Below, one piece after another: positions 25,317 through 30,693 of a DNA stretch of 32,093 nucleotides; the first letter of the stretch is position 1, and each line of letters begins with the position of its first letter. A model generated the notes under the pieces. That model was given only the letters and a program-made list of their open reading frames with translations. It had not been told where the DNA came from and did not search any database. Source of the DNA: a virus (taxonomy: Duplodnaviria; Heunggongvirae; Uroviricota; Caudoviricetes); IMG/VR virus record IMGVR_UViG_2698536480_000001, positions 1 to 32,093 of that record; one strand, 5' to 3'. A program made the translations under genes and the position numbers.

Positions 25317-26729
25317 TTGGCTACATGGCAACAGGCTGGTAATTCAGGCGCGCTTCTTGCCGGGTTAGGCGGCATGAACTCCAACGCTCCAAGAGCAAGT
25401 GATGCAGACGCCACGCTTGCATACATTCGACAGAATAACGAGATGGAGCGTTCAGGACGTAATAACGTTGGCTTGCAGGCTTTGCAGGGCATTTCATCTG
25501 TCATGGATATGTATAAGCAGATGGATCAGCAGAATCGACAGCAAGAGTTTCAGCAGGCTTATGCTGATGCATATACATCTGGTGACCGCGATGCAATGCG
25601 AAAACTGGCATCACAGTATCCTGAGCAGTTTGACGTTGTAAGAAACGGCATGAAATTTGTCGATGAAGACCAGCGTTCCACTGTCGGTACACTGGCAGCA
25701 AGTGCCAGACTCGCAGCTTCATCTCCAGAAGCCATGATGTCATGGTTGCAGAACAACTCATCTGAGCTTACTCGTGCCGGAGTAGACCCTCTGGATGTGG
25801 CGAAAATGTATCAGCAAAATCCACAAGGTTTCACAGAGTTTGTTGATCACCTTGGAATGGCTGCTCTTGGTCCGATTGATTACTTCAATGTTCAGGACAA
25901 GATGGCTGGTCGTGAAATTGACCGAGGCAGGCTGGCAGAGACAATCCGCAGCAATCAGGCTGGTGAAGCACTTCAGGCGAGAAGGCAAAACCTTTCCTAT
26001 CAGTCAGCAATGACTGGGCACAATATCGCAGCACAACGCTTGGCTCTGGATCAGCAAGAGTTCGGGTTTAAGATGCAGCAAGCGCAGGAAAAGGCTCAGC
26101 AGTTGATTAGCGAAGCACCTAAGCTGTCAGTAAACATGGAAAAAGGCATCGAGACGGCTGTAAACAATGCCACAGCATCATCAAACTCAGCCAATTCTAT
26201 GAGTGCGCTTGCTCAACAGTTCAGAGCAGAAAAACCAACGACAGGTTTGTTCGGTAACGCACAGAACATGTTCGCAAAACTTACCGGAAGCGATACGACA
26301 TTGCGTGATTTGCGCATTCGCCAAAATGCCCTTGTTAACAGTCAGGTTCTTAAATTCCTACCTCCCGGCCCAGCAACGGATAAAGACGTTGAGATCGTTC
26401 GACAGGGTGCGCCAACTGACATGGATAACCCTGAGACGGTCGCAAGATGGCTTGATGCAATGGCAAACCTTGAGCGACGAAACGCGCAGTTTAATGAGTT
26501 TAAAGCTGAGTGGATGAGCGCGAATGGCAACCCTGGACAATCGCGTAATGGCGGTCAGATATTGGGGTTGGATGTTAAAAAAGGTGAATCATTGGGGAGT
26601 GCCGTTAAGCGGTATATGTCAATGAATACTGACGCAGCACCAGCGCAAGATTCGACACCTTCAGGAGAACCACGGAATCAGGTTGGATCATATACCTCAA
26701 AATCAGGCATTCAATTTACGGTGGAATGA
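25317..26729 (+). CDS. ejection protein (P22 gp20-type)
   Basis: 470 aa (P22 gp20 is 471 aa); TTG start at 25317 with SD GGAGG 6 nt upstream. Confidence 0.85.
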
Positions 26730-28567
26730 TGAAAGTAACTGCAAACGGTAAGACATTTACCTTCCCTGATGGTACGAGCACGGAAGATATTGGATCTGCC
26801 ATTGATGAGTATTTTGCTGGACAGTCTGTTCAGCAACAAACTGTCAGCCAGGATAGCAATGAACCAGCACGTGAAGAACCATCATTGATGCAACAAGCTG
26901 GCGATTGGCTCACTGGTGGTCAAAGTGCAGGGCAAATTGCAGAACAGGCTGGTCGTGGTCTGGTAAACATACCATTTGACGTATTGCAGGGTGGCGCAAG
27001 TCTGATTAATGCAATCAGTCAGGGGCTTGGTGGACCCAAGGTTTTGGATGATGTTTATCGTCCAGTAGACAGACCGACAGACCCCTACGCGCAAGCCGGT
27101 GAAACAATTGGTGGGTATTTAGTTCCAGGAGTTGGAACGGCAGGAAGCATGGCTATTGGCTCACTGGCAGAGGCTGCAAATCAGAAAGGCGATTTCGCAC
27201 AAAATGCAGCAAGAAACGCCGGAGTTAACCTTGCCGCTCAGGGGGTTCTTTCCGCAGCAGCAAAGGGAATAGGGCGTGGAATAACGGCTATAAAAGGTGA
27301 TATTGCGCCAGAAGTGGCGAAGAAAATTGCCACATCAGAATCGATGGGCGTGACACCAATGACATCTGATGTTATCCCGCCGAAAAATGCTTTCACTCGC
27401 GGCCTTACTCAGGATGCCGAGGGGGCTTTGCTCGGGACAGGCTCAAAGAGAGCGGAGCAATATGCAACGCGTAGTAAGCTGGTAAGCAATTATTTTGACC
27501 GTTTTGGTGAGTACAACCCTGATGATGTGGTGAAATCTCTGACCACCACGTTAAGGGGGCGGAAGGATGCCGCTGGCGCTGTTATCAATGACGTCACCAA
27601 TAAAATGGGTAATGCCGCAGTTGATACCACAAATACCATGAATGCTCTGAATACAGCGATCGCAAGACAGGAACGGCTTGGGACTTCAGCCAATCAAAGC
27701 CTGCTTACATCCTTGCGTAACCTACGTGAAGAATTAGCAAACCCTGCAACTGATTTGGATGTTACGTTTGATCTCTTGCGTCAGCACAGAACAGCATTTA
27801 GATCTAATGTTCAGGGAGATTCTATGGTCTTCCCCAACCAGGCAAAAGCAGCTACCAATATGGTAGAGAATGCAATGTCAAAAGACCTTCGTAACGCAGT
27901 TGCAAAAAACCTCGGTGCGTCAGACGCAGCAAAATACCTTAAAGCAAATTCCGATTATGCAAACGTTTATAATAAGGTGCTTAATAAAAACATTGCTAAC
28001 AAGCTCAACAAGGCAAGCAGTGAAGCCAGTCCTGAACTTATAAATACCGTTGTATTAAGCAGAAAGCCATCTGACGTGAAACGAATCTGGAGCGCATTGG
28101 ATGATAAAGGGAAAGATGCTATGCGTGCAGCTTACGTCAGCAAAATAGCGGAAAAGGCCGGTGACTCTCCAGCCAAGTTCATCACTGAAGTTAATAAGCT
28201 TAAATCTCAGTCAGGCGGTGAAATTTACAACACTATTTTTTCTGGAAAGCACATGAAAGAGCTTGATGCTCTTCATGAAGTTCTACAGCAAACAGCAAGG
28301 TCAGACACCGCAAATGTAGTAACTCAGACGGGGCAATCACAAGCCAACAGGATAAGGACGATTGGCGCAACTGCGACTCTTGGAGTATCAATGGGGCTTG
28401 AGGCTGGCTTTGGTGCAATGATGCGTTTGTATGAGTCCAAAGCCGCAAGGAATATGCTTCTTCGTTTGGCAAACACCAAAGCAGGAACACCAGCCTATGA
28501 AAGAGCGCTAAATAACGCTGCGAATGCCATCAGACCGCTGTTTGCTACTGAGGCAACACAGCAGTAA
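26726..28567 (+). CDS. ejection protein (P22 gp16-type)
   Basis: 613 aa (P22 gp16 is 609 aa); last gene of the virion operon before the immI-type region. Confidence 0.85.
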
Positions 28568-28591: not shown

Positions 28592-28981
28592 CTAACATTT
28601 TCTTTTTACTTTTCCAACAAAAGCTTTGGTTGAATCCATATTTCCATAACCGGAAATGGTTTTTGACATTAAAACTGTTCCAGTAGGATGTATTACCCAT
28701 GAGTCGATAACGCGTTGAGTTTCGCCATTCGCGCCGATTCCTATGATGGAGTTTTTAGACAATGCTTTGTAAGCCATGCCGCCCGCATCTGTCCCAGAAT
28801 ATGTGATGCTGGCATCTTCACCGCTTGTCTTAATGATGAATGTTCCACTAAAACCATCTTCTTCCGGATGGAAATTATTTCGTTCTGAATAGCTTATTCC
28901 GCGCATATCTCCAACGACCCAGCACTCTGCTGTAGCCCCAAAAGATATGAATAAGAACATAGCAGCAAGAAATTGCTTCAC
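28592..28981 (-). CDS. secreted (signal-peptide) protein of unknown function at the sieA-equivalent locus
   Basis: GTG start at 28981 with SD AAGGAGG 5 nt upstream (track ATG at 29056 is further upstream); N-terminus MKQFLAAMFLFISFGATA-E looks like a Sec signal peptide; mature protein about 110 aa with Cys near both ends; convergent with gp16. Confidence 0.7.
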   Translation of the reverse strand: MKQFLAAMFLFISFGATAECWVVGDMRGISYSERNNFHPEEDGFSGTFIIKTSGEDASITYSGTDAGGMAYKALSKNSIIGIGANGETQRVIDSWVIHPTGTVLMSKTISGYGNMDSTKAFVGKVKRKC

Positions 28982-29045
28982 ACCAACCTCCTTAGTTTTG
29001 AGCAGGATACCAGATGATAATGTGTAGTTGGAGTAGCGCGGTTGT

Positions 29046-29137
29046 AATGCAAGCATTTTGTTTTAGTTTTATGCTTGCTTGTATGTGTGCACAGTGTATA
29101 TAATGCAAGCATAAATCACAACAAAGGTGCTTGCATT
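29046..29137 (+). promoter_or_regulatory. divergent promoter region with two about 35-bp palindromic operator-like modules
   Basis: AATGCAAGCAT (29046-29056) and inverted copy ATGCTTGCTT (29071-29080); AATGCAAGCAT (29102-29112) and inverted copy GTGCTTGCATT (29127-29137); -35 TTGCTT, 17-18 bp spacer, -10 TATAAT lie between the modules; the second module ends at the start codon of the downstream gene. Confidence 0.5.
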
Positions 29138-30106
29138 ATGACTGAAAAGAAAAGTGGCGAAGGGAAAGCTAAGGGCGGGATCGCTCGCGCAAAGTCGCTG
29201 ACTAAAGAGCAGCGTTCTGAAATAGCAAAGAAAGCAGCTGCTGCAAGATGGAAAAGTAAGATTCTCAGGGCAACTCATCGTGGTAACTTTTTAGATGATT
29301 TTGGCATTGATGCTGAATGTTATGTACTGGATGACGAGTCGAAAACTGTCGTTGTTACGAAAACTGGATTATCTCAGTTGCTAGGGATTGGTGAACATGC
29401 CAGGGATTTAGATCAACTGCTTGGCGCTCAGTATATGAGCAAATACCGAGATCTAGAATTGCAGCGAAAAATGGAAAATCCCTATAAATTTCAACTTACT
29501 TCGAAGTCTAAAACCGTTCATCAAGCGTTAGGTTATGACATTACAGCAATTGTTGATATTGGTAGGGCACTAATAGAAGCCAAAGATAATGACGATCTAC
29601 CACAATCACGGTTAAAGGCAGCCGCCGCAGCACAGAGACTTATTAATGCCTCCGCTAAGGCGGGAATTAAGGGGGTTGCGTATGCGCTTGCTGGTTATCG
29701 TCCAGAAGTTCAGGCTGTCATTGACGAGTTCAAAGCGTTTGTTCGTGAAGAGGCTCGTCAATATGAAAAGGAATTTCCAGATGAGCTATACGAGGAGTGG
29801 TATCGACTGTACGGCCTGAATAGGCCAGAGAAAGGACGGCCTATTCGTTTTGGGCAGCTAACCAACATGCAGATATACACCCCGCTAGCAAAGAGTAAAG
29901 GTAAAATCCTTGAACAGATTCGAGCCAGCCGAGACGAGAACGGAAAACAATCTGATAAGTTGCATCTGTTCCTTTCTGAAATTGGTGTCAAGGCTTTGCG
30001 TCAGCATATCGGTAAGCTTCTTGGGGTCGCAGCGATGAGTGAGACAAGAGAAGAATACGAAAAAGGAATAGAAAAGGTTTTTGGAAGAATGAAACCAGAA
30101 ATCTAA
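29138..30106 (+). CDS. hypothetical 322-aa protein with N-terminal basic helix (possible DNA/RNA-binding), immI-region accessory gene
   Basis: ATG at 29138; N-terminus KKSGEGKAKGGIARAKSLTKEQRSEIAKKAAAARWKSK is strongly basic; remainder mixed charge; followed by a bidirectional terminator shared with mnt. Confidence 0.75.
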   Translation: MTEKKSGEGKAKGGIARAKSLTKEQRSEIAKKAAAARWKSKILRATHRGNFLDDFGIDAECYVLDDESKTVVVTKTGLSQLLGIGEHARDLDQLLGAQYMSKYRDLELQRKMENPYKFQLTSKSKTVHQALGYDITAIVDIGRALIEAKDNDDLPQSRLKAAAAAQRLINASAKAGIKGVAYALAGYRPEVQAVIDEFKAFVREEARQYEKEFPDELYEEWYRLYGLNRPEKGRPIRFGQLTNMQIYTPLAKSKGKILEQIRASRDENGKQSDKLHLFLSEIGVKALRQHIGKLLGVAAMSETREEYEKGIEKVFGRMKPEI

Positions 30107-30110
30107 TTAT

Positions 30111-30137
30111 GAAACCCACCGTCAGGTGGGTTTTTTG
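30111..30137. terminator. bidirectional intrinsic terminator between the 322-aa gene and mnt
   Basis: AAACCCACC-GTCA-GGTGGGTTTTTT; A-run on one side and T-run on the other; the mnt stop codon lies in the loop. Confidence 0.7.
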
Positions 30138-30395: not shown

Positions 30396-30448
30396 TTGAC
30401 ATGATAGAAGCACTCTACTATATTCTCAATAGGTCCACGGTGGACCTA
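30396..30448 (+). promoter_or_regulatory. Pant promoter with Arc operator and Mnt operator
   Basis: -35 TTGACA (30396-30401), -10 TATATT (30419-30424); Oarc ATGATAGAAGCACTCTACTAT (30401-30421); Omnt palindrome TAGGTCCACGGTGGACCTA (30430-30448). Confidence 0.8.
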
Positions 30449-30463
30449 TATTGTGAGGTGAAT

Positions 30464-30625: not shown

Positions 30626-30693
30626 AGTTGAAGCCCCAACTGCGGGAACAGTCAGGGCTTCGGTATCAACAAATCGGATTAGGAAATATTGAC

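Follow-up and report, generated by a model that had tools for sequence, protein, structure and literature searches.

A multi-operator, probably autorepressed promoter on a widespread prophage gene family

What are the two large palindromes that accompany the promoter of a 322-aa gene in an Escherichia coli prophage, and what reads them? The window, by which we mean the whole stretch of 32,093 nucleotides that was analysed, is a P22-like (Lederbergvirus) prophage of E. coli, and the palindromes lie in the 153 bp between a leftward gene and the 322-aa gene. The surrounding features are as follows.

26726-28567, plus strand: gene 16
28984 (GTG) to 28592, minus strand: small secreted-protein gene, the leftward neighbour (phrog_2651)
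29138-30106, plus strand: 322-aa gene, ATG at 29138-29140, with a P63C domain (PF10546) at residues 199-286 (Pfam, phrog_2384)
30111-30137, unstranded: intrinsic terminator hairpin AAACCCACC-GTCA-GGTGGGTTTTTTG (from the sequence, with a weak sroH-like terminator match)
30373-30122, minus strand: mnt
30402-30449: Arc operator ATGATAGAAGCACTCTACTAT and Mnt operator GGTCCACGGTGGACC
30626-30692, minus strand: sar antisense RNA (Rfam RF00262, 71.6 bits)

Past the Arc and Mnt operators the order is arc, sar antisense RNA and ant. The 322-aa protein matched PF10546 at 52.7 bits, against a gathering cut-off of 26.1, and phrog_2384 with an E value of 1.7e-104. The hairpin at 30111-30137, which is strong and has a T-run, lies between the convergent P63C gene and mnt, covers the last codons of mnt and probably acts as terminator for both genes. 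The segment 28985-30110 is 100% identical to a prophage in E. coli strain ECONIH6; among 5,426 complete E. coli genomes, 116 have some match to it and 46 match over at least 80% of its length. The best reading of the region 29046-30137 is a self-contained accessory-gene cassette, consisting of a promoter with four boxes, the gene and its terminator.

The two palindromic modules reported in the earlier note are real: AATGCAAGCAT is found at 29046-29056 and, 56 bp further on, at 29102-29112. In module 1 the right arm, ATGCTTGC (29071-29078), follows after 14 nt and completes an exact 8-bp inverted repeat, while module 2 together with its flanks makes an exact 12-bp inverted repeat (29100-29111 / 29128-29139). 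The formula given earlier, with a right arm starting with A, needs correction in module 2, where this arm is GTGCTTGCATT (29127-29137) and starts with G. Every module arm is itself pseudo-palindromic (AATGC-AA-GCATT), and the true unit is thus one 10-mer, ATGCAAGCAT, present in four copies. These are centred at 29051.5, 29075.5, 29107.5 and 29131.5, in the orientation F-R-F-R.

29047-29056, orientation F: box 1, ATGCAAGCAT, about -64 to -55 from the predicted start site
29071-29080, orientation R: box 2, ATGCTTGCTT, about -40 to -31, holding the -35 hexamer
29103-29112, orientation F: box 3, ATGCAAGCAT, about -8 to +2, covering the predicted start site
29127-29136, orientation R: box 4, GTGCTTGCAT, about +17 to +26, ending 1 nt before the ATG

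With their flanks, the boxes in the window read AATGCAAGCATT, TATGCTTGCTTG, AATGCAAGCATA and GGTGCTTGCATT. The exact 10-mer occurs twice in the 32 kb window, both times in the array. When one mismatch was allowed, we counted 6 matches in the window against 4.76 expected, 4 of them inside 90 bp, for which our arithmetic gives an expectation of about 0.014. As had been stated before, the boxes show no relation to the operators of Arc and Mnt: the stretch 30402-30449 contains no box-like site at up to two mismatches.

The comparative evidence for the boxes is far stronger than these within-window statistics. A search of relatives for the same palindromes, which the earlier note had suggested, found them absent from none of the close ones: E. 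coli prophages and phage vB_EcoP-611R6 keep all four boxes intact, and the few differences, including a 1-bp deletion, all fall in the spacers. The same array design was present in Klebsiella and Phaseolibacter genomes found via the protein (72-76% identity), and at orf23 of Salmonella phage ST104 (31% protein identity), which lies between cI and gene 24. It was also seen in 80 viral contigs found in this way. Among 63 distinct upstream regions of relatives ascertained through the protein, 52 carry the canonical F-R-F-R array and the remainder degenerate or deleted versions of it. Scanning the viral contigs with the palindrome, we found that 51 of 120 matches adjoin a gene of the family; in metagenome DNA, 62 of 120 matches to the perfect palindrome are directly upstream of a family gene and a further 10 are at contig ends. 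The remaining metagenome matches of these 120 were single unrelated hairpins, for instance terminators and simple repeats, with no four-box array among them.

Further lone ATGCAAGCAT palindromes from viral and metagenome sequences were rejected as terminators, simple repeats or unrelated repeat elements. Eight metagenome loci hold another short repeat family built on '..tagATGCAAGCATataacattagATGCTTGCATat..' with 'tagatgc' repeats nearby, unlinked to P63C genes, and two further loci have TAAATGCAAGCATTT palindromes near a Bacteroidetes-type promoter.

Pooling phage, prophage and metagenome DNA gave 100 distinct arrays, linked to proteins with as little as 25% identity to that of the window and spread over Enterobacterales, several Pseudomonas species, Burkholderia cepacia and Caballeronia. 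Positions 3-9 of the box are 95-100% invariant in this set, an apparent invariance that is inflated because the box itself served to find part of the distant arrays, a bias for which the protein-ascertained sets correct only down to about 47% identity. Taken box by box, positions 3-9 of box 1 are at least 97% invariant (87 arrays), positions 2-8 of box 2 are unchanged in 86-87 of 87 arrays, and positions 2-9 are 98-100% invariant in box 3 and 95-100% in box 4 (100 arrays each). The spacers between paired boxes measure 9-15 nt in the 100 arrays and are unrelated in sequence. Some lineages have box 1 in R orientation, which gives R-R-F-R.

Single-module variants occur in two types of viral-contig locus, beside a tRNA gene. 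They look as if recombination between boxes 1 and 3, or 2 and 4, had deleted the intervening DNA; since the promoter between the modules has been lost in them, these copies may be silent. In E. coli 2017.18.04CC, box 2 and the -10 hexamer are separated by an IS1 insertion (at about 29081 of the window), and the P63C gene is gone from that prophage.

The boxes are interlaced with the signals for transcription and translation of the 322-aa gene.

29075-29080, plus strand: -35 hexamer TTGCTT, a 3/6 match to TTGACA, 18 nt upstream of the -10 hexamer
29099-29104, plus strand: -10 hexamer TATAAT, whose last two bases are the first two of box 3
29110-29112, plus strand: predicted transcription start A29111, placed from the position of the -10 hexamer
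29124-29129, plus strand: Shine-Dalgarno-like AAGGTG, overlapping the first three bases of box 4

A weak-to-moderate sigma-70 promoter, TTGCTT-18 nt-TATAAT, is predicted to drive the gene. The hexamers had been described as standing between the modules; both are present, but the -35 is contained in the right arm of module 1, and the left arm of module 2 shares bases with the -10. The promoter call itself is sound, given that the register of the -10 against box 3 is kept in all 100 arrays, with a T at -7 in every one and an A at -11 in 87 of them. The hexamer reads TATAAT in 27 of these arrays, TATTAT in 13, and is TAnnAT-like in most others. TTGCTT is too weak to be listed by a consensus promoter scan, and its position is fixed by the constant spacing between boxes 2 and 3, which is 21-22 nt in 75 of 87 arrays. 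Enteric arrays have TTGCTT inside box 2 as their -35; Pseudomonas-type arrays have a consensus TTGACA abutting box 2, which itself sits in the 17-nt spacer, and a -10-like hexamer in the same register.

If transcription begins the usual 7 nt beyond the -10, it would start at about A29111, inside box 3. Box 4 occupies the gap from the Shine-Dalgarno to the ATG (29138); it ends -1 to +2 nt from the ATG in 52 arrays and overlaps it (GCATG) in Pseudomonas-type relatives. The spacer of module 2 (29113-29126), unlike that of module 1, shows partial conservation in many enteric lineages (ATTTCACA[AG]CA...), and may have a part in translation initiation or offer a further contact to a protein.

Relative to the predicted start site, the box positions form a repression layout. 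They could also be read in the manner of the C proteins of restriction-modification systems, whose C-boxes have a GACT..AGTC-type consensus and an O_L/O_R arrangement: the protein would activate a weak promoter from module 1 and, once concentrated enough to fill module 2, shut it off. The enteric -35, with its three matching bases and its place inside box 2, would suit such dual control, and two modules upstream of and over the gene's own promoter do resemble the O_L/O_R layout. However, the Pseudomonas-type promoter, with consensus TTGACA and box 2 in the spacer, needs no activator, the single-module variants keep the repressing module only, and the protein has no Xre-type helix-turn-helix domain, so that we regard dual control as quite unlikely.

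The earlier note further supposed that module 2 forms a stem in the mRNA of the gene and hides the ribosome binding site. RNA of positions 29098-29145, which contains both arms, does fold into a 14-bp stem (-16.4 kcal/mol, z -4.75) covering the Shine-Dalgarno and the AUG, but this is relevant to read-through RNA only. The register of the -10 puts the start inside box 3, hence the gene's own mRNA would be without the left arm and the stem could not form. Folding the leader, as had been proposed, agreed with this: the predicted leader 29110-29170 reached -4.1 kcal/mol (z +1.4), and the 27-nt leader was less structured than shuffled controls. In 79 arrays we saw no pair changed on both sides, a comparison of low power because the core is invariant, and the single changes that do occur break pairs. 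Among the Rfam covariance models, only generic miRNA-hairpin models matched 29037-29147, far below threshold, the sar RNA being the sole true match in the window. The idea of a stem acting in the gene's own mRNA was given up on account of the promoter geometry and the missing covariation.

A weaker form of RNA-level control would confine the hairpin to read-through transcripts, arriving from the late operon via gene 16 or from P_RM in ST104-type contexts, so that only transcripts from the gene's own promoter would be translated. Besides the stability of the stem, it would account for the placement of box 4, always between Shine-Dalgarno and ATG or on the ATG, and for the invariant F-R orientation of module 2, which maximises pairing. 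Read-through is plausible, as gene 16 is upstream on the same strand, and late transcription in P22 crosses the region. RNA-level control in either form nevertheless seems unlikely to us. To the unstructured leader and the absence of compensatory changes and of an Rfam family is added the fact that boxes 1 and 2 lie outside the mRNA and are conserved equally, and the R-R-F-R lineages would spoil a hairpin in module 1.

Boxes 1 and 2 precede the predicted start site and are nonetheless conserved on a par with boxes 3 and 4. This points to recognition at the DNA level, and the boxes appear to be read as sequence, on DNA. The proposal that the palindromes are operators of a dimeric repressor stands in part. 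The invariant boxes, the free spacers and the position of boxes 1 and 2 agree with operators, but a symmetric dimer leaves the strict inverted orientation in module 2 unexplained.

The whole stretch 29040-29143 can also be folded into one long hairpin (-47.5 kcal/mol, z -5.6), and one might see in these ~100 bp a structural DNA element, such as a cruciform, a recombination site or the end of a small mobile element, instead of a regulatory one. Mosaic junctions just left of box 1 and the natural deletions between boxes would be in keeping with it. However, a super-hairpin of about 100 nt is an automatic by-product of placing one box in the order F-R-F-R. Complementarity between the spacers never rose above that of shuffled controls in 77 arrays, a result by which a giant hairpin or cruciform was rejected and which largely refutes the structural reading; the 10/13 spacer match seen in the window is a composition effect of a T-rich against an A-rich spacer. 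The orientation of the array and its register to the -10 and the start codon are, moreover, constant, and linkage to a transposase or recombinase is absent. We judge a purely structural role very improbable.

If the boxes are operators, which gene do they serve? Control of both divergent genes had been suggested, and this found no support in relatives, where the leftward gene is swapped for unrelated genes, or in phage Emek, where the same leftward gene occurs without the array. By eye and by promoter scan, 28985-29140 showed no convincing sigma-70 promoter that would serve the leftward gene. Upstream of the array, most other contexts have a terminator or a tRNA gene instead of a divergent gene, and even the most frequent neighbour family is seen in no more than 5 of 17 lineages. 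Among the contexts are the gene 16-mnt slot of P22-like phages, the cI-gene 24 slot (ST104), and tRNA-adjacent islands. The array moves with the P63C gene alone, and its linkage to this gene family is exclusive.

The leftward side has an organization of its own. In E. coli P22-like prophages, the leftward genes beside the P63C gene are unrelated to one another (130 aa here; 134, 87, 109 and 122 aa elsewhere), and all have a GTG start, a common ribosome-binding site and about 60 bp of common upstream sequence (28979-29045 in the window), with the mosaic junction exactly at the start codon. It looks like a fixed expression platform that takes exchangeable cargo. In ST104 (2430-2470) and in many viral loci after a cI-like repressor, a conserved terminator, GGTCGCAGAAATGCGGCCTTTTT, stands immediately before the array, so that the P63C cassette occupies the cI-gene 24 slot. 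In other P22-like phages this slot holds exclusion or abortive-infection genes.

As to what binds the boxes, a linked regulator gene was rejected, as no neighbour family is conserved (5/17 lineages at most). Mnt or Arc as binder found no support, because the array is found in many genomes without an immI region, for example ST104 (where it is beside cI), Pseudomonas and Burkholderia. Since the array travels with the gene alone, two candidates are left, the 322-aa product itself and a host factor that would have to be conserved in hosts as far apart as E. coli and Burkholderia. P63C is the only domain that Pfam finds in the 322-aa protein, and neither domain nor fold searches returned a recognised DNA-binding domain. 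The protein does have a conserved segment close to its N-terminus.

29171-29251, plus strand: N-terminal motif KGGIARAKSLTKEQRSEIAKKAAAARW, codons 12-38, candidate box reader by its conservation and its co-occurrence with boxes

The motif consensus is KGGxARAxxL[ST]xExRxxIAxKAAxARW (residues ~12-38). In the most distant members of the family, with 25-34% identity overall, residues 12-38 are 48-78% identical, versus 22-29% for the rest of the protein. Sequence searches against Pfam, NCBIfam and PDB gave no match to it, and AlphaFold, at low confidence for the motif, predicted residues 1-22 to be disordered and residues 23-39 to form a helix.

A natural experiment is provided by 130 distinct upstream regions ascertained through the protein. 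When motif carriers were called by an automatic pattern, 112 of 116 had at least two boxes; adding three carriers that escaped the pattern, 115 of ~125 have boxes (~119 with the canonical motif and 6 with a GGVERA variant). Five relatives without the N-terminal motif have neither boxes nor any other palindrome upstream. These five, which are homologous from 'ATHKGNF...' onward and differ in their N-terminus, probably represent two or three independent events only. Variants of the motif go with variants of the box: proteins with ..KAAQ[YF]RH pair with the flanks TAGCAAGCAA / ATGCTTGCTA, and those with GGVERA..AALVKSGG with AAGCAAGCAA / GTGCTTGCTA, the GCAAGC core being unchanged in both cases.

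The motif is not confined to P63C proteins. At seven metagenome loci, a convergent ORF of ~80 aa just downstream of the P63C gene carries the motif KGGxARA..L..E.R..IA.KAA.ARW at its C-terminus; these ORFs have no upstream boxes and belong to no Pfam family, and alphaRep matches of one such small ORF were dismissed as an artefact of repeat composition. The presence of the motif in unrelated, boxless proteins means that the motif alone does not imply a box. It is a mobile module that occurs in more than one protein family.

The co-occurrence of box and motif, the variant flanks and the conservation of the motif favour autoregulation through the N-terminal arm. They have to be weighed against a different regulator, either a host factor of the MarR/SlyA type or another prophage protein, that would use the boxes as operators. 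The SlyA consensus box, TTAGCAAGCTAA, shares the 5-AA-5 layout and the GCAAGC core with the boxes described here, and its specificity resides in the outer TTA-N6-TAA triplets (PMC5797941), exactly where the boxes differ, reading AAT..ATT. SlyA itself was rejected as binder on this mismatch of the specificity triplets, only the GCAAGC core being common. The lack of a recognised DNA-binding domain in the 322-aa protein would leave room for another regulator, but the arrays are kept in Pseudomonas and Burkholderia, so that a host factor would have to be conserved across all hosts, and neighbouring genes are not conserved. Four-box arrays stand only beside the P63C family, and a host-factor model does not predict that motif-less members of the family are boxless. 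We consider a separate regulator rather unlikely.

Our preferred reading, held with moderate confidence, is an autorepressed cassette whose 322-aa product would bind its own boxes through the N-terminal arm; binding, repression and the identity of the binder are all things that we infer. A sequence-specific DNA-binding protein would occupy the boxes and, at boxes 2 and 3, exclude RNA polymerase and shut the promoter, while boxes 1 and 4 would probably add cooperativity. The binder would most likely be the gene's own product, acting via its conserved basic N-terminal arm. The arm appears to be flexibly tethered, which would account for the tolerance of 9-15 bp spacers within box pairs. The outcome would be negative autoregulation, holding the protein at a low and constant level in the lysogen.

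A bolder extension, which we find doubtful, is that the KGG-ARA-RW arm of ~28 residues is a portable DNA-reading module, new to description, and forms with the frozen ATGCAAGCAT box a plug-and-play autoregulatory cassette that has carried P63C genes across beta- and gamma-proteobacterial prophages. The boxes would perhaps then work at two levels, as DNA operator and as translation-blocking hairpin in read-through RNA. If so, the gene would be expressed from its own promoter only, insulating a potentially harmful, possibly anti-phage protein from the strong transcription of lytic or repressor operons that runs across the slots where it is inserted.

Proteins with a P63C domain are common in prophages (1,682 database relatives in one search), and our literature search found no paper that gives them a function or covers the box sequence. 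For this family there is now a defined cis element, together with a predicted promoter, a predicted start site and a candidate DNA-binding motif. Neither the leftward gene nor the 322-aa gene matched the PADLOC v2 profiles of known anti-phage defence systems. The P63C gene occupies the two P22-like positions where genes for superinfection exclusion or abortive infection are classically found. Tight control by its own product would be in keeping with a protein that does harm in excess, and the family is a reasonable candidate for defence screens. The frozen 10-mer, retained from E. coli to Burkholderia, could also be a handy marker for such cassettes in metagenomes.

Among known systems, the nearest in layout are the repressor promoters of temperate phages (O_R/O_L of lambda and P22, and Arc/Mnt of immI), in which several copies of a short pseudo-palindromic box are likewise placed amid -35, -10 and +1. 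They share with the cassette a regulator that is probably cis-encoded, repression by occlusion, and extra sites for cooperativity. The differences are that the boxes bear no sequence relation to the operators of Arc and Mnt, that the 322-aa protein has no recognised helix-turn-helix or ribbon-helix-helix domain, and that one box lies on the segment from Shine-Dalgarno to ATG. Immunity operators diversify, whereas the box described here is frozen across beta- and gamma-proteobacteria. The element is probably a multi-operator, autorepressed promoter on a widespread prophage gene family, notable for the rigidity of its box across very distant hosts.

The SlyA/MarR box is a 12-bp pseudo-palindrome with an identical centre and arm layout (PMC5797941), from which the boxes depart in their outer triplets, and the arrays also occur outside Enterobacteriaceae. 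The C-boxes of restriction-modification systems likewise comprise two palindromic operators upstream of and over the regulator's own promoter, with a very short leader and autoregulation at a fixed low level. C proteins, however, are Xre-type helix-turn-helix dimers of ~80 aa with linked restriction-modification genes, neither of which is present here.

In its genomic position the cassette is closest to the accessory genes of P22-like phages. The sieA slot (gene 16-mnt) and the slot downstream of cI are sites of stand-alone genes with their own promoter, such as sieA, sieB, rexAB and BstA of BTP1. The P63C protein has no sequence relationship to the products of these genes and no PADLOC match, and a defence role is a candidate only; yet it is the same two slots that are occupied here, by a gene that brings its own promoter and its own terminator.
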